Origin: Eubacteriales bacterium
GTDB lineage: Bacteria; Bacillota; Clostridia; Oscillospirales; CAG-272
Direction: 5' to 3'
NCBI GenBank assembly: GCA_045657485.1
Contig: JAZOTE010000063.1
Location: forward strand, 107,395 to 171,394
DNA: 64,000 bases
The notes beneath the pieces are model-generated. The model ran no database searches. It saw nothing but the letters and a program-made list of their open reading frames with translations, and was not told the DNA's origin. Both the position numbers and the translations under genes were made by a program. Below are positions 4,864 through 52,441 of the stretch, piece after piece (the first letter of the stretch is position 1; the number at the start of each line of letters is the position of its first letter).

Positions 4864-4890
4864 TTGGCACATCACAATTTGTTTTTATAG
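4864..4890. repeat. H3: degenerate half-copy of the hairpin family
   Basis: AAAAAATTTGGCACATCACaatttgttttt resembles the A-tract plus left arm. Confidence 0.3.
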
Positions 4891-5036
4891 CAATCAAAAG
4901 CATAGTGTAAGTTTTTTGGACTTTTTTGTTCTGTTTTCGCTTTTGTCTGCGGAGATTTTTTCGCATATCGAAAAAGATATTAATCATTATAGGCAGAGCT
5001 ATAATATTTTTGCATTCGGAAATTTTCCGGCAAAAA

Positions 5037-44021: not shown

Positions 44022-45824
44022 TCAGAAGCCGCCCTGCTCGGTAATGGGCGCGCAAATTCCGAGATCCTCTCTGTCAAAGAATTCTACGGATAAAGTATCT
44101 GTGCTGTCAGACTCGAAAACGATTATTTCGTTTTCACCGATTTTCAGTATCGGTGCAGGAACGTAGAGCGTTTTTTGCGGTCCCGCATCATTAAAATATC
44201 TGCCAACGTTAAATCCGTTTATTTTGACGAAACCTTTATGGAAGCCGTCAAGTCTTATGAACGTATCCGCCGGCTCTTCGTTGATTTGGAGAAATCCTCG
44301 CAGAAACGTAGGTTTTCTTATAGAGTTTCTTTCGGCCTTTTTGAATTGCAGGCCCTCAAGCTCCTTTTCCATGGGTAAGCAGTACGTTTCCCAACCGAAG
44401 TGGTGCTGATCGTTTAACTTCACAGCGCTAAGTCCCTTGCGGTCGAGAAGCTTTGGACCGTAGTTGACACGTCCCATATTTTCAACCAATAGATCAAGCT
44501 GTACACGTTCATCAAAATCCGGTGCAACGGTCACAAGCTCATCTTTCTTTGGCTTTGCCCAGCGGCAATAAGTGCCCTTATGCTCGCCGTCTATAAATAT
44601 TTGAACTCTGTCGTGTATTTTATCAAACTCAATGCCTCTTTTTTCGGCTGGCCCTTGGATTTTCGAACGGTACAGAATATATCCGTATGATTGCCCCAGG
44701 TCCTCCATAAATTTCGGGGCAGCAGAGAACACGGGCGTAGAAATGTTACCGATATTATCAAACAGATCTGCCGTTTCCAGAAGCTCTACCTTGCCGTACG
44801 CCGCCTTTTTTGATTCTGTAGCGGTAAGCAGCGGTACGCTTCCGTAGTATTTCTTTACGAGATCCCGTATTGCGTAATAGGTAGGTGTACGGTCACCGGC
44901 TTCGTTCAGGGGGGCGCAATAATCGTAGCTTGTAGTGGTAGGCGCGTAACCGTTTGCGTCGCAATTTGCTCCGTTCATAAAGCCAAAGTTGGTTCCACCG
45001 TGGAACATATAGAAGTTAAACGATGCGCCTATTTCAAAGAATTCCTCAAAATCCGAAACTACCTCTTCCGGAGTACGCGTATGATGATATTCAAACCAGT
45101 GGTCAAACCAACCGCACCAATATTCACCGCACATAAGAGGTTGATTCGGTCGGAAATTTTTGAGTAGTGCTAATCTTTCCTTTGGCTTTGAACCGAAGTT
45201 TGCTACGGCGAGATACTCGTCAAGAGTGCCGCCGTTCAGCATATAATACGTAGGTCCGTCAGATGTAAAATACAGACAGTCCATACCGTTTTTCCTATAT
45301 ATTTCCGCTACCCGACGCAGATATCCTTTGTCGTCGCCGTAGCTTCCGTATTCGTTTTCCACCTGTATCATAGTAATACAGCCGCCATTTGAGGAAAGGT
45401 AAGGCCTTACCCTTGGTAAGAGCTGATCGTAATATCTCTCGACCTTAGAGAGAAATTCATCATTATTGCATCGTAGTGCCATTTTTTCATACTTCAGAAG
45501 CCAGGCGGGCAGACCGCCGAACTCCCACTCGGAGCATATGTACGGACCGGGTCGCAGTATAAGATCAAGTCCAAGCTCCTGCGCCGTAGCAATAAAAGCA
45601 GCTATATCCAGATTTCCGGAAAAGTCAAACTCGTTCTCCTGCGGCTCGTGCAGATTCCAAGCGGTATATGTTTCCACGGTGTTAAATCCGCATTCCTTTA
45701 ATTTCAGAAGCCTATCGTACCAGTATTCGCGCGGAATACGGAAGTAATGTATTGCGCCCGAAAGAATTGTATGCTTTTTTCCGTTTTTATAGAAGCTGTT
45801 ACCCTTGTAGGTGAGATTTCCCAT
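44022..45824 (-). CDS. GH35 beta-galactosidase
   Basis: SGAIHYFRIPREYWYDRLLKLKECGFNTVETY..WNLHEP...RPGPYICSEWEFGGLPAWL are typical GH35 blocks. Confidence 0.8.
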   Translation of the reverse strand: MGNLTYKGNSFYKNGKKHTILSGAIHYFRIPREYWYDRLLKLKECGFNTVETYTAWNLHEPQENEFDFSGNLDIAAFIATAQELGLDLILRPGPYICSEWEFGGLPAWLLKYEKMALRCNNDEFLSKVERYYDQLLPRVRPYLSSNGGCITMIQVENEYGSYGDDKGYLRRVAEIYRKNGMDCLYFTSDGPTYYMLNGGTLDEYLAVANFGSKPKERLALLKNFRPNQPLMCGEYWCGWFDHWFEYHHTRTPEEVVSDFEEFFEIGASFNFYMFHGGTNFGFMNGANCDANGYAPTTTSYDYCAPLNEAGDRTPTYYAIRDLVKKYYGSVPLLTATESKKAAYGKVELLETADLFDNIGNISTPVFSAAPKFMEDLGQSYGYILYRSKIQGPAEKRGIEFDKIHDRVQIFIDGEHKGTYCRWAKPKKDELVTVAPDFDERVQLDLLVENMGRVNYGPKLLDRKGLSAVKLNDQHHFGWETYCLPMEKELEGLQFKKAERNSIRKPTFLRGFLQINEEPADTFIRLDGFHKGFVKINGFNVGRYFNDAGPQKTLYVPAPILKIGENEIIVFESDSTDTLSVEFFDREDLGICAPITEQGGF

Positions 45825-45954
45825 AATTTTTACCTTCCTGATTTAGCGGAAATAACTTTCTGAATGAATTATACCATATCATAAACGGCAAATCAATAGT
45901 TTCATAAAAACAGTTGAATGAATTAGTGAAGAGTGAATAGTGAATAGTGAGAAA

Positions 45955-45990
45955 GTAAAAATCGACAAGCTTCTGGCGAAACTTGTCGAT
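45955..45990 (-). terminator. Rho-independent terminator downstream of tRNA-Arg
   Basis: ATCGACAAG...CTTGTCGAT stem followed by a T-tract on the minus strand. Confidence 0.7.
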
Positions 45991-45993
45991 TTT

Positions 45994-46070
45994 TGGCCTA
46001 CCCGATAGGATTCGAACCTACGGCCTTCAGAGTCGGAGTCTGACGCGCTATCCAGCTGTGCCACGGGTAG
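45994..46070 (-). tRNA. tRNA-Arg (anticodon CCG), CCA encoded
   Basis: Hand-folded. Acceptor CTACCCG/CGGGTAG; anticodon stem TCAGA/TCTGA with loop CTCCGAC; T-arm GTAGG-TTCGAAT-CCTAT; 77 nt. Confidence 0.9.
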
Positions 46071-46092
46071 ATTTAAATTATTGATTATTTTT

Positions 46093-46282
46093 AGAACCTA
46101 ATTAACTGTTTTCAGAACCTACGTCCCGTCCCGTCGCATAGTCGCCGTGCGTCGCTCGATACACTCGCTCCTACGGCTCGTTGCTTTGGGGACTTCGCAT
46201 CGCAAAAACGATAATCAATCGTTTTTGCTCGCTCACCTTCAAAGTCGGAGTCTGACGCGCTATCCAGCTGTGATATGGGTAG
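46093..46282 (-). pseudogene. tRNA-Arg-like 5' copy (acceptor to variable loop) with a ~110-nt insertion and broken T-arm
   Basis: 46236-46282 matches tRNA positions 1-47 with 5 mismatches. CGTAGGTTC resumes at 46115-46123 and TAGGTTCT repeats at 46093-46100. Confidence 0.7.
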
Positions 46283-46304
46283 ATACGTTCTGTATTGCCA
46301 TAAT

Positions 46305-46333
46305 ATTCTATCATTAAATAATCTTTTTGTCAA
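46305..46333 (-). promoter_or_regulatory. Consensus promoter driving the tRNA-like scar plus tRNA-Arg
   Basis: TTGACA-N17-TAGAAT on the minus strand; the -10 ends 22 nt upstream of the tRNA-like 5' end. Confidence 0.6.
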
Positions 46334-46411
46334 TGATTTCTTTGAAAATATTGCTTATATACAGATTATGTGTTATAATGTAATAGAACACATTTCTACC
46401 AGAGGTTTAAT

Positions 46412-47398
46412 ATGTCATCATTTCTTTTTGCGTTAAACGCTGTGACCCCTATCGTATTGATGATGGTCATAGGATATATTCTGAAAAGCATCGGATTTGT
46501 ATCAAAGGATTTTATAAAAATGGCAAACAAGCTCGTTTTTCGCGTGTTTTTGCCTCCAATGCTGTTTCTGAACGTCTATAAAATTGATAATCTCGCCTCC
46601 GTTGATTTTGGTTATATAATATATGCTGTCACTGCTGTGCTTACGATTTTTTTCGTAGTGTACGGTCTTGTTATCGTGTTTACCAAAAATCCCAGACATC
46701 GCGGAGCGTTACTTCAGGCGTCATTCCGTTCCAATTTCGCTCTGATAGGCATTCCGCTCGCAGAATCTCTTTTTGGCTCGGAAGGTGTAGCGATTGCGGC
46801 AGTATTGTCAGCGGTAGCTATTCCTGTGTTTAATATTCTTGCCGTTATAAGCCTCTCTGTATTCTCTGACAGAAAGGAAAAGGTTAAATTCAGCAAGGTG
46901 CTGCTTGGCATTGCAAAAAATCCGCTTATAATAGGTGTATTTGCAGGACTTATAACGCTTAGCATCAGAGCACTCTTCGTAAATCTCGGAGTAGAATTTA
47001 GATTGAGTGATATCCAGCCCATCTATAAGGTGTTGAATTATCTCTCAAATATGGCTACGCCTCTCGCGTTGATAGTTCTTGGCGCGCAGTTCGAGTTCTC
47101 CGCGGTCAAATCCTTGCGCCGTGAGATTATCTTTGGAACAGCGTTGCGCACCGCCGTGGTTCCCATAGCCGTTCTAGGTACAGCTATATTATTCTTTAGA
47201 AGCTCATTCGGCGGGGCACAGTATGCTGCCTTAACCGCGCTCTTTGCAACTCCCGTTGCCGTTTCAAGCGTTCCGATGGCGCAGGAAATGGATTCTGACG
47301 TTACGTTGGCAGGTCAGCTTGTCGTATGGTCTACACTGACCTCGGTTATTACAGTTTTTGTTGCTTCACTTGTTATGAAGCAAGTAGGTATTTTTTGA
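46412..47398 (+). CDS. AEC (auxin efflux carrier) family transporter
   Basis: About 10 TM segments, 328 aa, typical AEC layout. Confidence 0.65.
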   Translation: MSSFLFALNAVTPIVLMMVIGYILKSIGFVSKDFIKMANKLVFRVFLPPMLFLNVYKIDNLASVDFGYIIYAVTAVLTIFFVVYGLVIVFTKNPRHRGALLQASFRSNFALIGIPLAESLFGSEGVAIAAVLSAVAIPVFNILAVISLSVFSDRKEKVKFSKVLLGIAKNPLIIGVFAGLITLSIRALFVNLGVEFRLSDIQPIYKVLNYLSNMATPLALIVLGAQFEFSAVKSLRREIIFGTALRTAVVPIAVLGTAILFFRSSFGGAQYAALTALFATPVAVSSVPMAQEMDSDVTLAGQLVVWSTLTSVITVFVASLVMKQVGIF

Positions 47399-47455
47399 TA
47401 TCGAAGGCTTCATAGGAGTAATCCAATCATTGTTCTGCTCATAAATATATACTAA

Positions 47456-47500
47456 AAACAACAAATCAAGGCATTTTTTGCTTTGGTTTGTTGTTTTGCT
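47456..47500 (+). terminator. Rho-independent terminator
   Basis: AAACAACAAATCAAGGC...GCTTTGGTTTGTTGTTT plus a T-run. Confidence 0.6.
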
Positions 47501-47744
47501 TGTTTATGAAGTTAAGTATATATCCAAATCACCGCATAAACGATATAAAACGGTGTTTTACCTTTGTCTTGTATTCGCAGTAACTCACCGTTGGGTAGTG
47601 TGAAAGCGAACAAATACCGTGTGATATCTTAGCTTTATCATGCGATTTCATGAACTTCGTGAGTACGCTAACATAAAATATTGCACCCAATTTGCACCAA
47701 AAATCACACCAACAGTCAACGTTGTTTGACTCTACAATTGGAAT

Positions 47745-47924
47745 TTATAAATCTTCAATTGGAGTAACTATCGGTTTACCATCTTTGTCCAACAAAACTG
47801 TTAAACCACCCGCGTAACCACCTGTATGAAACAAATAATTAATACCCGTTTCTCTATCTACCCAAATCTCTGTAGAACCTAACTCTTGAGTATAAATTTT
47901 CACAAATCTTTTTTCTTTAGCCAT
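47745..47924 (-). CDS. Small DUF6440-like protein
   Basis: MAKEKRFVKIYTQELGSTEIWVDRETGINYLFHTGGYAGGLTVLLDKDGKP. Confidence 0.45.
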   Translation of the reverse strand: MAKEKRFVKIYTQELGSTEIWVDRETGINYLFHTGGYAGGLTVLLDKDGKPIVTPIEDL

Positions 47925-48047
47925 TGTAATAACCCCCGCCAAATTCAAGTTTATCGATTAGATACATAACCAAGGTAATTATACCATAATTTTTCCAAAA
48001 AGTAAATAGGACGGCGAGGTTCTTTACAAATTGAACCGCCACATTTG

Positions 48048-48188
48048 TTAAAGCAAATCGTGCTCAATTGATTCAGCCATCTTGGCTTTGTATTCTTTGA
48101 AAATATGAACGTAGATATTAGAGGTGATTTCGGTGTTACAATGTCCGAGGTGCTCAGAAATAGCCTTAACGTCAAATCCGTAGAAAAA
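48048..48188 (-). pseudogene. Tyrosine recombinase 3' remnant (last ~46 codons)
   Basis: ...GFDVKAISEHLGHCNTEITSNIYVHIFKEYKAKMAESIEHDLL* carries the LGH...Y catalytic-Tyr region. Confidence 0.7.
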
Positions 48189-48189
48189 C

Positions 48190-48258
48190 AAAAAGCCCTG
48201 CCGAAGCAGAGCTTTTTGTATATCGAAATAATCCCGAATGGGTAATTATCTCTTGGAG
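48190..48258 (-). repeat. Direct repeat copy 1: rpsI last codons + stop + terminator
   Basis: 69 bp matching 50271-50339 with one mismatch. Confidence 0.8.
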
Positions 48259-48270
48259 TTTTGAGAGTAC

Positions 48271-48368
48271 CGTTTGATATCGTGAATATCGTTAAATATC
48301 GTATGATTTCGTAGCTTTATCGTGTGATTTCGTGCGATATCGTGAATATCGTGAGTATCGTCGCATAA
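48271..48368. repeat. Degenerate 10-bp tandem array, about 10 units, consensus CGTGAATAT(C)
   Basis: CGT recurs at 48271, 281, 290, 300, 310, 321, 331, 341, 350 and 359. Confidence 0.75.
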
Positions 48369-48408
48369 AGTGTTGCACCAAATTTGCACCAAAATCACAC
48401 CGAGATTT

Positions 48409-48996
48409 TCAAGCATTCAAAGTCCTAAATAACAGCTTCTTGTTTCGCAAAAGGTTCATGCTAAGCAAAAATACAATTACGCACACGGCAGAGCCGAGGG
48501 TAGCGTTCATAATTACAATTTCTGCTTCGGTCATTCCCTCGAATGAAACAAGCATTGAGCGTTGCAATGCGAATATCGATACGAAAGCATCCGCAAAGGA
48601 TATGTTTCGTAGTGTGATAAGTGTTGCCGACGTACTGCGACGGGCTTTTACGAGTTTTATTGTCGCAAGCGTGATTTTTGTAAAGGCATATACCGCCATA
48701 GCTAACATTACAATCATATGTAGCTTGAGTCCTCTATCTCGCACTACCGAAAGTATAACAGTTCCGGCAAGCGGTATGGATAATAGCATCAACATCCAGC
48801 CTGTAAACTTGGTAACAAAACGCTCTTGATTTTTGGAGCGTAGTACCACAAAGCGTACAATACTTAAAACAAGGTAGTACGAGCCAAGCGTTAATAACCA
48901 CCACGAGCTCGTAATCAATCCCAAAATAAGATGATAGCTTGCAAACGCTATGTTGAATGATAGACTTGCGAGAGCGAGTTTCAAATTCCTATCCAT
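48409..48996 (-). CDS. Multi-pass membrane protein, unknown function
   Basis: Five to six hydrophobic segments. Overlaps the TetR gene stop by 8 nt. Confidence 0.5.
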   Translation of the reverse strand: MDRNLKLALASLSFNIAFASYHLILGLITSSWWLLTLGSYYLVLSIVRFVVLRSKNQERFVTKFTGWMLMLLSIPLAGTVILSVVRDRGLKLHMIVMLAMAVYAFTKITLATIKLVKARRSTSATLITLRNISFADAFVSIFALQRSMLVSFEGMTEAEIVIMNATLGSAVCVIVFLLSMNLLRNKKLLFRTLNA

Positions 48997-49585
48997 TGAT
49001 ATTCCTCTCGCCCATCACGCAATCAATAATGATCTTAATAATCATTTTCATATCGTCCGAACAATTCTTATTGAGCCATTCCATAATAATAGCAAAAACG
49101 CCAGTTAGATAGAATTTCATCACATAGGCACGCTCTTTTTCGGGAACGTGGAAGCGTTCAAGAATAGGATTGAAGATGTGTTCAAACATTCTGCCATACA
49201 CCTCATTCATATTAAATGAGTTAAACTGCTTGATAGACACCTTGAACAAACGCTGATTGTCTTTGATAAATTTCAAATAGGGCACAAGATACTCGTCTGT
49301 GATAAACAAAAGCTCATCACACTTGCAGGTTTCAAATTGCAGAGCAATGCGTGTCTTGTCTATTTCATAGTATGCGAGATGTTTGTCAATGATATAACGT
49401 GTAGTTTCCTTTAGCAAATCCGAGGTGTTCTCGTAATGTAGGTAAAAGGTGGAACGGTTTACCCCTGCCGTATCACATATCTCCTTAATGGTGATATACT
49501 CAAAGTCCTTCTTTTCAAGTAGCGTAATGAGGGCTTCGTCCATACGTATCGCCGTGTTGAAGTATTTACTTTCGTTCTTGTTCAT
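48989..49585 (-). CDS. TetR/AcrR family transcriptional regulator
   Basis: N-terminal HTH ...ITIKEICDTAGVNRSTFYLHYENTSDLL. Confidence 0.8.
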   Translation of the reverse strand: MNKNESKYFNTAIRMDEALITLLEKKDFEYITIKEICDTAGVNRSTFYLHYENTSDLLKETTRYIIDKHLAYYEIDKTRIALQFETCKCDELLFITDEYLVPYLKFIKDNQRLFKVSIKQFNSFNMNEVYGRMFEHIFNPILERFHVPEKERAYVMKFYLTGVFAIIMEWLNKNCSDDMKMIIKIIIDCVMGERNING

Positions 49586-49606
49586 AAGACCGCCCTCCGT
49601 GAATAC

Positions 49607-49951
49607 TTATTTACCCTCGCTAATCTCTCTCGCAAGCTCCACAATCTCATATGCGTACTTCTTTTTGCCCTTTTCGAGCATTTTTGTGTAAATAGGGTAA
49701 TTCACACCGCAACCAATCATACCAATGATACCGATTAGAATACCAAGCACCATATTGCTTCCGATAACCTGCATAGCAAGACTCATTCCTGTGCCAAATA
49801 TAAGAGCAAAAACGATGCCCCACGTATATGTGAAAATAGTTGCAGGGAGCTTTGCCTTTGCATCAAGCTTACGAAGTGCTATGAGTTTGGATTTGTCTTT
49901 AGGAGCGTACTCTTTTGCGATGGATTCTGCGTAAATTTTGTCTGTGTTCAT
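49607..49951 (-). CDS. Small two-TM membrane protein
   Basis: 114 aa with a hydrophobic core, GIVFALIFGTGMSLAMQ...GILIGIIGMIGCG. Confidence 0.5.
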   Translation of the reverse strand: MNTDKIYAESIAKEYAPKDKSKLIALRKLDAKAKLPATIFTYTWGIVFALIFGTGMSLAMQVIGSNMVLGILIGIIGMIGCGVNYPIYTKMLEKGKKKYAYEIVELAREISEGK

Positions 49952-50123
49952 TTTGTTTCTCCTTTTCGGTTGTTTTTTTGTTGTGACTTTATTATACCAA
50001 CCGACAAAGTGAAACGGAACAACAAGATTTGCGTAATGTGTTGATTTAAGTAAATTATATCACAAAATCCCCAAAATTGAAATAGGACGGCGAGGTTCTT
50101 TACAAATTGAACCGCCACATTTG

Positions 50124-50195
50124 TTAAAGCAAATCGTGTTCGATAGATTCAGCCATCTTGGCTTTGTATTCTTTGAAAATATGAACGTAGATATT
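50124..50195 (-). pseudogene. Tyrosine recombinase 3' remnant (last ~22 codons)
   Basis: ...NIYVHIFKEYKAKMAESIEHDLL*. Part of the 116-bp repeat 50080-50195, which equals 48004-48119. Confidence 0.65.
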
Positions 50196-50270
50196 CGTAG
50201 GGGCGATTCACGAATCGCCCGACATATAATGCGAAAAAATGGGCGATTCGTGAATCGCACCTACAATAAC

Positions 50271-50339
50271 AAAAAGCTCTGCCGAAGCAGAGCTTTTTGT
50301 ATATCGAAATAATCCCGAATGGGTAATTATCTCTTGGAG
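50271..50339 (-). repeat. Direct repeat copy 2 (genuine rpsI 3' end + bidirectional terminator AGCTCTGC-cgaa-GCAGAGCT)
   Basis: See copy 1. Confidence 0.8.
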
Positions 50340-50728
50340 AACTGAGGTGCACGACGAGCGCCCTTGAGACCGTACTTCTTTCTCTCCTTCATACGAGGAT
50401 CACGAGTAAGGAATCCAGCCTTCTTGAGAAGGGGCTTGTAGTTTTCATCAGCAGAAAGAAGAGCGCGAGCAACACCGTGACGGATCGCGCCTGCCTGACC
50501 GGAGAAGCCACCGCCCTGAACGTTAGCTACAACGTCGAACTTGCCAACGGTATCAGTAACACCGAAGGGCTGATTAACAATATACTTCAAGGTTTCCAGG
50601 CCGAAGTAGTCGGAAACATCTCTGCCGTTAACGGTAACAGCACCGGTACCGGGATACAGACGAACTCTGGCTACAGACTTCTTTCTTCTGCCTGTGCCGT
50701 AGAAATAGGGCTTTGCACTAGTATACAT
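50327..50728 (-). CDS. rpsI: 30S ribosomal protein S9
   Basis: [13 protein letters not shown]...[17 protein letters not shown]...RDPR.KERKKYG...ARR.PQFSKR. Confidence 0.95.
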
Positions 50729-50746
50729 TACACATTTCCTCCCTTA

Positions 50747-51172
50747 TTAGTCAACTACGATAGGCTTCTGAGCAGCCTGCTTGTGAGATGCGTCTGCGTA
50801 TACGTGCAGACGGGTGAAGGACTTATCACCGATGTGGTTGTGAGGGAGCATACCCTTAACTGCGAGCTCCATAGCCTTCTCAGGATTGGTAGCCATAAGG
50901 GTCTTGTAATTAACTTCCTTAAGTCCGCCGATGTAACCGGAGTGATGACGGTAGAACTTCTGCTCCAGCTTCTTGCCGGTCAGAACTGCCTTTGCAGCGT
51001 TTACAATGATAACGTACTCACCGCAGTCAGCGTGGGGAGTGAACTCAGGTCTGTGCTTGCCGCGAAGAATATCAGCAGCCTTAACAGCGGTCTTGCCAAG
51101 GGGCTTGCCTGCTGCATCAATAACAAACCATCTGCGTTCGATGTTGTTTGCATTTGCCATGAATGTAGACAT
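50747..51172 (-). CDS. rplM: 50S ribosomal protein L13
   Basis: GGAGG RBS. MSTFMANANNIERRWFVIDAAGKPLGKTA...YRHHSGY.GGLK. Confidence 0.95.
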   Translation of the reverse strand: MSTFMANANNIERRWFVIDAAGKPLGKTAVKAADILRGKHRPEFTPHADCGEYVIIVNAAKAVLTGKKLEQKFYRHHSGYIGGLKEVNYKTLMATNPEKAMELAVKGMLPHNHIGDKSFTRLHVYADASHKQAAQKPIVVD

Positions 51173-51233
51173 TTTAATTTCCTCCAATATTTAGTTTGAC
51201 GTACCTATGTACGTGCGTTTTCAAAGCCTACAT

Positions 51234-51262
51234 ATTATAGCATATATTTCAAAGCTTGTCAA
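51234..51262 (-). promoter_or_regulatory. Consensus promoter of rplM-rpsI; the short leader contains an ACGTAC-atag-GTACGT hairpin
   Basis: TTGACA-N17-TATAAT on the minus strand. Confidence 0.65.
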
Positions 51263-51544
51263 CACTTTTTTGCATATTTTTTCGAAAAAATCAATTTGAA
51301 AAACTAAAGCTCCCTAAATCTCCCAAAAGCTCTCAAAAGCTCGTAAATCCTCGATGGAGATATATCGATTATTTTTTCGTAAAACCGTTTTTTTAAAATA
51401 AGTGTTTGCAGTTGTTGTGGATAAAACGTATTGTCAAATGCGGCGCTCGCTGTTAGGTGAGTGTTATAAATCGCCGTTTGAAAAATTATTAAAACGGCGG
51501 ACGGGTTTTGCTTCCGTCCGCCTTAAATTATATTTTTCGTTTTA

Positions 51545-52441
51545 TCAGAGCATATCGCCGTTAATAAATCCAACCATCTTGCCTATATGCCCGCCGTCCG
51601 ACAGATACTTCTTATATGCGCGCATCAGCGAGGATTCTTCGGGAAGCGTGGACGGATCGCCGTTGTAGCCGTTTACGTAGAATATGCGCCACAGATCTCC
51701 GTCTGCCACCTCGTAGCTGTCCGGGTCAAGCTCAAAATCGTCGAGAAATGATCTGATATTTGATCCCTCCGGCAGTATTTCACGGTGTATGGTATTCAGA
51801 AGCCACGTTCCGCACCTGAAGATAACTTTACCGTCCGGAACTATGTTCCTATAATATCTTTCCGCGCGCACGTATGAGCTGCGGCGGTTTTCGGGACTGA
51901 ACGGAGTTCTGTTATCGGATGGAATATGTATGGTTACCACCGTTTGTCCCTTGCTGACGTCTACAGTCTTGCCTTTAAAGGTACGCTCGGATTCCAGGAG
52001 ATTATACTGCAATCTTCCAAATGCTATTCTGTCAGCGGTGAAAAAGCGCTTATGCCATTCTGTGCTTATTCCCCATATTCCGAACCGCTTACGGTTTTCG
52101 CGTAGCTTCCATTTAAAATCTATCATAGAGTCATACCATTCGTCCATACCGAGTCCGCGACGTTCAAAGTAGGGAAGAGCGAAGCTGGAAAGTGATGCCA
52201 TATGTATAAATCCTGACTCCATCTCGCTTATACCGGCTGTCGTCGCTGCCAAAGAAATAGCCTCGCGCAGTCCGTCGTAGTCAAAGGTTCCGTTTCGGTA
52301 AAGCTCAATGTAGGAATTAAGTCTTTTTTCAATATCCGGATATTTTAATAGCTTATTTGCATTGGAGAGTGCACTCTCTCTGATTTCTTTTTCATAATCA
52401 AAATAATCGAGATGATTTGTCAGATTGCTTATCAGGTCCAT
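51545..52441 (-). CDS. Conserved hypothetical protein (resembles NAT_N/GNAT_C-type acyltransferase-domain proteins)
   Basis: 298-aa ORF abutting the upstream gene. Similarity is recalled, not tested. Confidence 0.4.
   Translation of the reverse strand: MDLISNLTNHLDYFDYEKEIRESALSNANKLLKYPDIEKRLNSYIELYRNGTFDYDGLREAISLAATTAGISEMESGFIHMASLSSFALPYFERRGLGMDEWYDSMIDFKWKLRENRKRFGIWGISTEWHKRFFTADRIAFGRLQYNLLESERTFKGKTVDVSKGQTVVTIHIPSDNRTPFSPENRRSSYVRAERYYRNIVPDGKVIFRCGTWLLNTIHREILPEGSNIRSFLDDFELDPDSYEVADGDLWRIFYVNGYNGDPSTLPEESSLMRAYKKYLSDGGHIGKMVGFINGDML

Follow-up and report, generated by a model that had tools for sequence, protein, structure and literature searches.

What is the origin of a chromosomal region in which the end of a ribosomal protein gene, a terminator and the end of a recombinase gene occur twice in tandem? 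The question is raised by positions 47560-50339 of a 64,000-nucleotide stretch of DNA (the window; GenBank assembly GCA_045657485.1, contig JAZOTE010000063.1) that carries rpsI, the gene for ribosomal protein S9, in a member of an uncultured gut Clostridia genus (source assembly of 146 contigs, 89% complete). Very probably, two integrative mobilizable elements (IMEs) have left remnants here, one behind the other, at the rpsI 3' end. This agrees with the original prediction, which had described tandem decayed integrative units here, and it is supported by intact parent elements found at the same core. Judged by its sequence, each unit resembles a cis-mobilizable element (CIME), without recombinase and transfer genes and with its attachment (att) sequences kept. 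Features are described in the order in which they follow rpsI, on the minus strand.

The target gene rpsI (50327-50728, minus strand) was identified from the open reading frame (ORF) listing and by its match to Pfam Ribosomal_S9 (E = 3.3e-50). The last 12 nt of the gene, including the stop codon, plus TTA make up a 16-nt core, CTCCAAGAGATAATTA, which places the integration point at the rpsI 3' end. Exactly two perfect copies of the core are found in the window, both on the minus strand. Copy 1 (50324-50339) is attL of the rpsI-proximal unit, unit 2, and copy 2 (48243-48258) is attR of unit 2 as well as attL of the rpsI-distal unit, unit 1. A degenerate third core, ATACAAGACAAAGGTA (47560-47575, minus strand), marks the distal end of the stack; it matches at 10/16 positions and lies in register behind the AACGGT end of the adjoining arm (alignment A1). 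Both units are thus bounded by direct repeats of the rpsI end, two of them exact and one degenerate.

Pairwise repeat comparison within the window reveals that 48190-48258 and 50271-50339 correspond over 69 nt with one mismatch, which is the duplication of the rpsI end and terminator that had been claimed, at the same coordinates. The chance expectation for such 69-nt pairs in 64 kb is ~1e-30. A further repeat of 116 nt joins 48004-48119 to 50080-50195; its presence had been predicted correctly, but we count three mismatches rather than four. It extends to 148 nt at 91% identity (47972-48119 versus 50048-50195). The start-to-start distances of the two repeat pairs are 2076 and 2081 nt, in agreement with the period of about 2.08 kb proposed earlier. 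The two units also end in arm blocks, which are about 80% alike between 47612-47702 and 48294-48394 (repeat families D3 and D7). Within the 64 kb, TTGGTGCAA has three exact matches, all of them in these two blocks. The earlier description of homologous arms with a shared motif holds.

To relate the units to a mobile element, homologs of the recombinase were sought with the full-length integrase of G053 (G, L and C numbers are our handles for genomes, loci and contigs). The search gave about eight full-length relatives and more than 50 C-terminal fragments. Full-length integrases with the C terminus ...AESIEHDLL, for which the original prediction had proposed a search, are present in L088, L087, L100 and G053, all from related uncultured gut Clostridia. 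L088 (CAJKPX010000059.1) holds a complete element. Its left part comprises rplM, rpsI, the core, a terminator of type T2, three TTGGTGCAA sites and a 315-aa protein; its middle part encodes a 553-aa protein with Rep_OBD (PF01719) and RNA_helicase (PF00910) domains, ArdA and an 84-aa excisionase-like protein; and its right part consists of a 387-aa integrase, a hairpin/promoter module as in the window, nitroreductase-like cargo, an arm and the core. The integrase gene is situated at the rpsI-distal end, and its product contains a SAM-like and a catalytic domain (Phage_integrase, E = 2e-27). Because attL and attR of L088 share only CTCCAAGAGATAATTA (13-16 nt), the crossover region is defined. 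The attL of L087 and L100 is the same as that of L088. These comparisons identify the parent IME and integrase of this module family. Each cassette corresponds to the slot for cargo that an IME with a PF01719-helicase relaxase has between its integrase and attR.

Unit 2 (2.1 kb) has the order rpsI/core 1, spacer and terminator T1, palindrome pair, integrase stump, hairpin and promoter, three cargo genes and arm 2. Except for the palindrome pair, to which no strand is assigned, all of these features lie on the minus strand. The left end is a replacement spacer with an rpsI terminator of type T1, AAAAAGCTCTGC-TTCG-GCAGAGCTTTTT (50269-50323), which forms part of the 69-nt repeat. It is followed by a REP-like (repetitive extragenic palindrome) pair, GTAGGTGCG...CGCCCCTAC (50197-50264; inverted repeat I3, 96% complementary), which occupies the place of 24 further integrase codons present in unit 1. 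The junction at this pair, ...CCCCTACG joined to AATATCTACG, is common to at least eight other species. The GTAG...CTAC palindrome at this position is present in one full copy in the source genome, with weak relatives on contig C6 (C6:630-826), and more copies are found in G036. A search of the source genome for a Y1/RAYT transposase (PF01797) gave no match, and the REP identity of the pair is unproven. Palindrome pairs with other inner hairpins and the same GTAG/CTAC ends were also observed at the same junction in other species.

The integrase stump of unit 2 (50124-50195) comprises the last 23 codons and the stop; the encoded peptide, NIYVHIFKEYKAKMAESIEHDLL, is covered in a tblastn alignment by residues 351-374 of the full-length integrase. 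At the DNA level it is 96% identical to the stump of unit 1. The post-integrase module (50053-50123) consists of a hairpin and a putative extended -10 promoter, TGTGATATAAT, with the -10 element at 50054-50059, and is 87% identical to the module of unit 1. This promoter, which would drive the cargo, was read from the sequence, and the consensus promoter scan did not list it. The same hairpin/promoter module is found 3' of the intact integrase in L088, G053 and G014.

The cargo of unit 2 (48409-49951) consists of three genes, encoding a 114-aa membrane protein (49607-49951, ORF), a TetR regulator (48989-49585, Pfam TetR_N and TetR_C_8) and a 195-aa membrane protein (48409-48996, ORF). NCBIfam and PADLOC assigned no function to the membrane proteins. 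For the three-gene set as a whole, PADLOC gave no match and NCBIfam nothing beyond TetR, and no sign of a defence system was seen in these searches. The same three genes are found behind rpsI in at least five other species and are present in several more. The unit ends in arm block 2 (48259-48403), read as the P arm of attP, which contains two TTGGTGCAA repeats (48373-48392) and a 10-bp phased array of CGTGAATAT type (48271-48368). It is 98% identical to the arm beside attR of the intact L088, 97% to those of G081 and G114, and 96% to that of G116. Here as in unit 1, the arm-type sites are predicted binding sites and the promoters are predicted to be active.

Unit 1 (0.7 kb) continues from core 2 with T1, a 47-codon stump, a promoter, a DUF6440 gene, arm 1 and the degenerate core, again all on the minus strand. 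Its spacer and T1 copy (48188-48242) belong to the 69-nt repeat with its single mismatch, and the hairpin at 48219-48188 is terminator-like with 14 pairs. The stump frame (48048-48191) matches positions 144-170 of the 172 in the Pfam Phage_integrase profile, that is, the C-terminal end of a tyrosine recombinase, as had been claimed for the repeat. Its homology covers 43 residues up to the stop, GFDVKAISEHLGHCNTEITSNIYVHIFKEYKAKMAESIEHDLL, including the LGH box and the catalytic Tyr, and these are 98% identical to the full-length integrase of G053 over 43 aa. The post-integrase module (47972-48047) carries a predicted promoter, TTTACT-17-TATAAT plus TG, which scored 10/12 matches with TG in the promoter scan (48006-47978). 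The cargo is a DUF6440 small protein (47745-47948; PF20037, E = 1.4e-25), which also occurs in the arrays of G116, G078, L108 and L052. Pfam and the ORF listing thus agree with the gene content read earlier, a TetR gene and two membrane-protein genes between the repeats and a DUF6440-like gene beyond them. Arm block 1 (47576-47712; repeat families D3 and D7, alignment A1) is shorter and more decayed than arm 2, the arm blocks overall being roughly 110-145 nt long.

The regular period (2076 and 2081 nt) and the near-identity of core, terminator and stump between the copies would also be expected if a 2.08-kb segment had simply been duplicated locally and had then diverged, with no site-specific recombination. 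This explanation is extremely improbable. The two units carry unrelated cargo, their arms agree at only 74-80% as against 98.5% for the terminator, and the same modules bound other cargo in 91/213 genomes of the genus. A comparison of rpsI downstream regions, as suggested in the original prediction, yielded intact elements that target rpsI in related gut Clostridia and an insertion-free genome of the same genus, G022 (L028). The latter has a single core, none of the modules and ordinary chromosomal genes behind rpsI. The two repeat copies are therefore not a local duplication that existed before the insertions.

Compared with the intact element, unit 1 lacks everything from just past the terminator to integrase codon ~343, and unit 2 everything to codon ~365. 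Lost with this span are the P' TTGGTGCAA sites and the genes for the relaxase, ArdA and the excisionase-like protein, whereas each unit has kept the terminator, integrase stump, promoter, cargo slot, P arm and core. Of the attachment sites, the cores and the P arm are retained, the P' sites of the intact elements are missing, and the distal core of unit 1 is degenerate. Neither unit contains a relaxase, and the integrase is represented only by the stumps of 23 and 47 codons. In the source assembly, at its 89% completeness, no cognate integrase was found; the closest match is 29% identical. The classification of the window as an IME was rejected, since integrase and relaxase are absent and only stumps are left. 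A split integrase of the SSV type, with attP inside its own gene, was likewise rejected: in intact integrated elements the integrase gene is uninterrupted and lies well away from the core, and there is no N-terminal integrase part on the arm side.

The truncation junctions fall into classes that recur, nucleotide for nucleotide, in other species. The unit 1 type, in which T1 is joined to CAACGG at approximately aa 343, is found in at least six species. A class that joins T1 to ATTTCC at aa 351 occurs in at least eight species, as does the unit 2 type, GTAG...CCCCTACG joined to AATATCTACG, in which the REP-like palindrome meets aa 365. Measured over terminator, stump and promoter, units of one junction class share 88-97% identity, against 77-89% for rpsI of the same genomes. 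For L122 versus L132 the values are 96.9% for the unit and 76.8% for rpsI, and for the window versus L113 they are 90.4% and 77.3%. Similarly, identity is 96-98% between arm 2 and its counterparts in genomes where rplM-rpsI shows 70-83%. By these identities, the units appear to be younger than the species that carry them. Because the junctions are shared with other species and the units have diverged less than rpsI, each unit probably had no integrase when it arrived, and the integrases were probably truncated before arrival rather than destroyed in this lineage. The earlier claim that the recombinase was lost after accretion is thus correct as regards the remnant state, but destruction within this lineage probably did not take place. 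In some relatives (L042, L071 and L062) the stumps contain stop codons or frameshifts, which indicates that the stumps are pseudogenes and are not conserved for coding.

These junctions bear directly on the possibility that two intact IMEs integrated successively in this lineage and that local deletions then removed the body and most of the integrase of each. Deletions do recur, as the truncation points range from aa 309 to 377 of 387 among species, and the junction type that accompanies the TetR cargo varies from species to species, which points to erosion continuing after establishment. Decay in place is nevertheless unlikely, because both junctions of the window are nucleotide-identical in at least 6-8 other species, copies with the same junction are more similar than rpsI, and no cognate integrase is left in the genome.

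Several observations weigh against an origin of the stack as acquired IME remnants. The terminator T1 is present in none of the intact elements, all of which carry the different type T2, so that the direct parent of the T1-stump junction is missing; G014, moreover, has a T1-type hairpin at its outer end, adjoining a chromosomal gene. We read T1 at 50269-50323 tentatively as element-borne; it could come from the P' arm of an unsampled parent, from native sequence or from recombination. The TetR cargo of the window is 75-86% identical at the DNA level to copies elsewhere, which is about equal to the identity of rplM-rpsI, and this cargo could therefore be largely vertical. The third core is weak evidence when taken alone, and with only 10/16 matches it leaves the distal boundary of the stack soft. 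In principle, recurrent deletion at microhomologies (TATTTC and CAACGG), rather than a single event, may have produced the shared junctions.

Two IME remnants being the favored explanation, the following course of events is proposed. The parent IMEs would integrate by tyrosine-integrase recombination between the attP core and its exact counterpart in the chromosome, the final 12 nt of rpsI with TTA, and would supply their own stop codon, spacer and terminator, so that rpsI stays intact. The two units would have become stacked through integration into a regenerated core. Since other species have these junctions too, truncation most likely preceded the arrival of the units in this genome. Rare intact IMEs probably carried the units along as passengers, through composite excision involving attL of the IME and the arm and core of the remnant. 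Such excision would explain why a P arm and a core are retained in each unit. Alternatively, the units may spread by homologous recombination in the conserved rplM-rpsI flank. As it stands, the stack is probably immobile in this genome unless a helper IME arrives. Unit 2 would be a better candidate for rescue than unit 1, as it has two perfect cores and a well-kept arm. At present, the stack would serve only as a set of promoter-equipped accessory genes, a TetR-controlled membrane-protein pair and a DUF6440 protein.

The spread of such units also allows a more active interpretation, in which functional units are moved singly by a recombinase encoded elsewhere and form an integron-like array seeded on rpsI. 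A core and a conserved arm delimit every unit, which also has a promoter of its own; the cargo of 46 units falls into 38 protein clusters, a very high diversity; and units are far more common than integrases and are spread between species. Yet the units lack P' arm sites, which makes excision of single units by a lambda-type pathway doubtful, and stumps with stops and frameshifts mark the units as deletion products. There is also no integron integrase and there are no attC-like sites, and cis-mobilization by intact IMEs, a known process, accounts for the same data. We therefore regard an active cassette system as quite improbable. An integron proper was rejected, as the window contains no IntI and no attC, and has instead a linear arm with a gene-end core and separate promoters; with NCBIfam integron models, the related full-length integrase is far below the cut-offs. 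It is conceivable, if somewhat doubtful, that the integrase-less units constitute a working cassette pool that is passed among species of uncultured gut Clostridia, with shuffling of units, and in which selection or hitch-hiking would keep just what composite excision with a rare intact IME requires, namely the P arm and the core, together with a private cargo promoter. If so, the pool would be a Gram-positive functional analogue of integrons made of IME attachment arms, and unit 2 of the window, whose cores are both perfect and whose arm is conserved to 98%, would remain open to mobilization.

For streptococci, the literature describes IMEs that carry a tyrosine integrase and occupy the 3' end of rpsI, a gene targeted there by three integrase families (PMC5357655, PMC5704250, PMC5090054). 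IME_SsuTL13_rpsI and IME_Seq35246_rpsI encode a relaxase that combines PF01719 and PF00910, and IMESag-rpsI, for which excision was shown experimentally, has a MobV relaxase (Coluzzi 2017, PMC5357655; Guedon 2017, PMC5704250; Lorenzo-Diaz 2016, PMC5090054). IMEs are often found in tandem with decayed elements, through integration, decay to a CIME and renewed integration (PMC5704250, PMC5357655, PMC5090054), and according to the cis-mobilization model an IME at the proximal core is excised together with the remnant (PMC5704250). The intact relatives of the window units share with the streptococcal IMEs the target, the compact order of relaxase, excisionase and integrase, and the protein with PF01719 and PF00910. 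Several integrase families per site, three there and at least three here, and frequent accretion with decayed elements are further points of agreement. This likeness is based on target, layout and domains as published. In contrast to the streptococcal elements, the host is an uncultured gut Clostridia genus known from Oscillospirales-type metagenome-assembled genomes (MAGs), the window contains stumps in place of an integrase and a relaxase, and the MobV relaxase of IMESag-rpsI is not seen here.

In Streptococcus thermophilus, a similar stacking, with CIMEs and tandem accretion, is described at fda for ICESt1/ICESt3 (Pavlovic 2004; Bellanger 2011; both cited through PMC5704250). The window shares with these CIMEs the stacking by site-specific integration into a regenerated att site and, presumably, the spread as passengers with an intact relative. 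Its units differ in that they have no left arm (P') sites, so that only composite excision seems possible, and in that they are very small (0.7 and 2.1 kb), are much more common than their parents and are known from sequence alone. In all, the window appears to fit the known tandem accretion of cis-mobilizable remnants in every structural feature that can be tested.

The full-length integrase resembles the heterobivalent integrases of the Tn916/Tn1549 type. Its closest solved structures are 3nkh ('Integrase') and 6emy/6en0 ('Int protein'), the latter of which we take to be Tn1549 Int. It has the SAM-like and catalytic domains, and the short direct repeats near the core look like arm-type sites. 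Unlike Tn916, which has low target specificity, the elements described here are strictly specific for a gene end. Integron cassettes, too, are small tandem units with diverse cargo that each end in a recombination site. They differ from the units at rpsI, where IntI and attC hairpins are absent, promoters are present unit by unit, a housekeeping gene provides the site at its end and the window units are visibly deletion products of IMEs.

A close full-length integrase is found within the genus only in G053, with a partial copy in G177. In the fetched loci, 38 protein clusters fill the 46 cargo slots. From sequence reading, the cargo includes a 1286-aa restriction-modification-like enzyme, a GNAT acetyltransferase, a deaminase-like protein and a NUDIX protein, as well as lipoproteins and XRE-type regulators. 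Pfam identified DUF4097 in the cargo of G014 and the TM1586 nitroreductase family in that of L088. The hotspot at the rpsI end, with the cycle of integration, decay and accretion known from streptococcal IMEs and ICEs, is documented here in an uncultured ruminant-gut Clostridia genus, and widespread integrase-less rpsI cassettes are tied to parent elements, with the integrase stump as a molecular fossil of their IME origin. This is a known and ordinary way for gut bacteria to pile up foreign genes, and no new mechanism is opened by it.

Many contigs of same-genus MAGs end 0-1.2 kb downstream of rpsI (G003:C12, G013:C12, G010:C45, G020:C90, G023:C50, G005:C120, G002:C113, G004:C36 and G011:C25). 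These ends represent a systematic assembly break, as expected for a variable, repeat-bounded hotspot, and genome surveys will consequently under-count arrays and intact elements. For annotation, the units described here explain MAG contig breaks just 3' of rpsI and flag their cargo as horizontally acquired.

The same core is also used by other integrases. The 8.5-kb element of G014 at this site encodes a D5-type primase-helicase and an integrase that is 42% identical. In a third integrase family (L098, L099, L056 and G018), which also targets this core, the integrase gene points towards rpsI in convergent orientation. Comparison of L056 (1100-1400), L098, L099, L029 (G018), L024 (G014) and L096 shows at least three integrase families at one rpsI core, the parent type among them, and next to the core every family has short direct repeats of its own. 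These are GATGTCC repeats for the 42%-identical type and AATTCGTGGCAA or TTGACCAA repeats for the convergent type, which is 39-48% identical. L056 has a stack in which elements of two integrase families share a single core.

Many relatives have arrays in the interval that separates the rpsI terminator from the integrase stump or promoter. In these arrays, a constant 7-9-mer (AACTTCAC, AATTCATGA, ATCATAAC, GCTTCAT or ATTTCAT) alternates 3-5 times with short perfect hairpins. The stems of the hairpins vary between repeat units. Examples are L154 (~440-512), L009 (G020; 100-330), L005 (G003; 60-300) and L069 (G119), and in the G003 and G020 arrays the left half has the motif inverted. Arrays of this type are also present in the source genome (G000) at C44:27760-27815, C61:19961-20019, C85:129589-129664 and C92:67640-67695. 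The AACTTCAC-type array adjoins the integrase at seven different codons, and hence one end is fixed while the other varies. An inverted copy of the last 15-22 nt of rpsI (e.g. TTATCTCTCGAGAAC) lies just past the rpsI terminator in L005 (G003), L009 (G020) and L073 (G116), so that the terminator hairpin is flanked by the rpsI end on one side and the inverted copy on the other; the window does not have this feature.

An Rfam search of 45000-52000 identified a tRNA-Arg only, and the hairpins and arm arrays in this range match no known RNA family. On the far side of the stack, a bidirectional terminator (47455-47497) separates it from a convergent permease gene (46412-47398, plus strand) of the auxin efflux carrier family (Mem_trans). 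Among the 40 relatives searched, the permease has no close ortholog, the best match being 58-59% identical at the amino acid level in G078. In G003, whose rpsI is 94% identical, the permease DNA matches at only about 70%. The permease gene may also be acquired DNA. Further on, an insert of ~115 nt (46125-46235, minus strand) is situated inside a tRNA-Arg-like 5' copy upstream of tRNA-Arg(CCG). It is homologous to a block of ~125 nt in four other species, L071 (G145; ~4890-5012), L073 (G116), L027 (G019) and L026 (G021), where it is flanked by the rpsI terminator and by a second, 67-nt copy of the rpsI 3' end. Probably, the insert is all that is left, a single arm, of an element from another integrase family, one whose integration produces long direct repeats.

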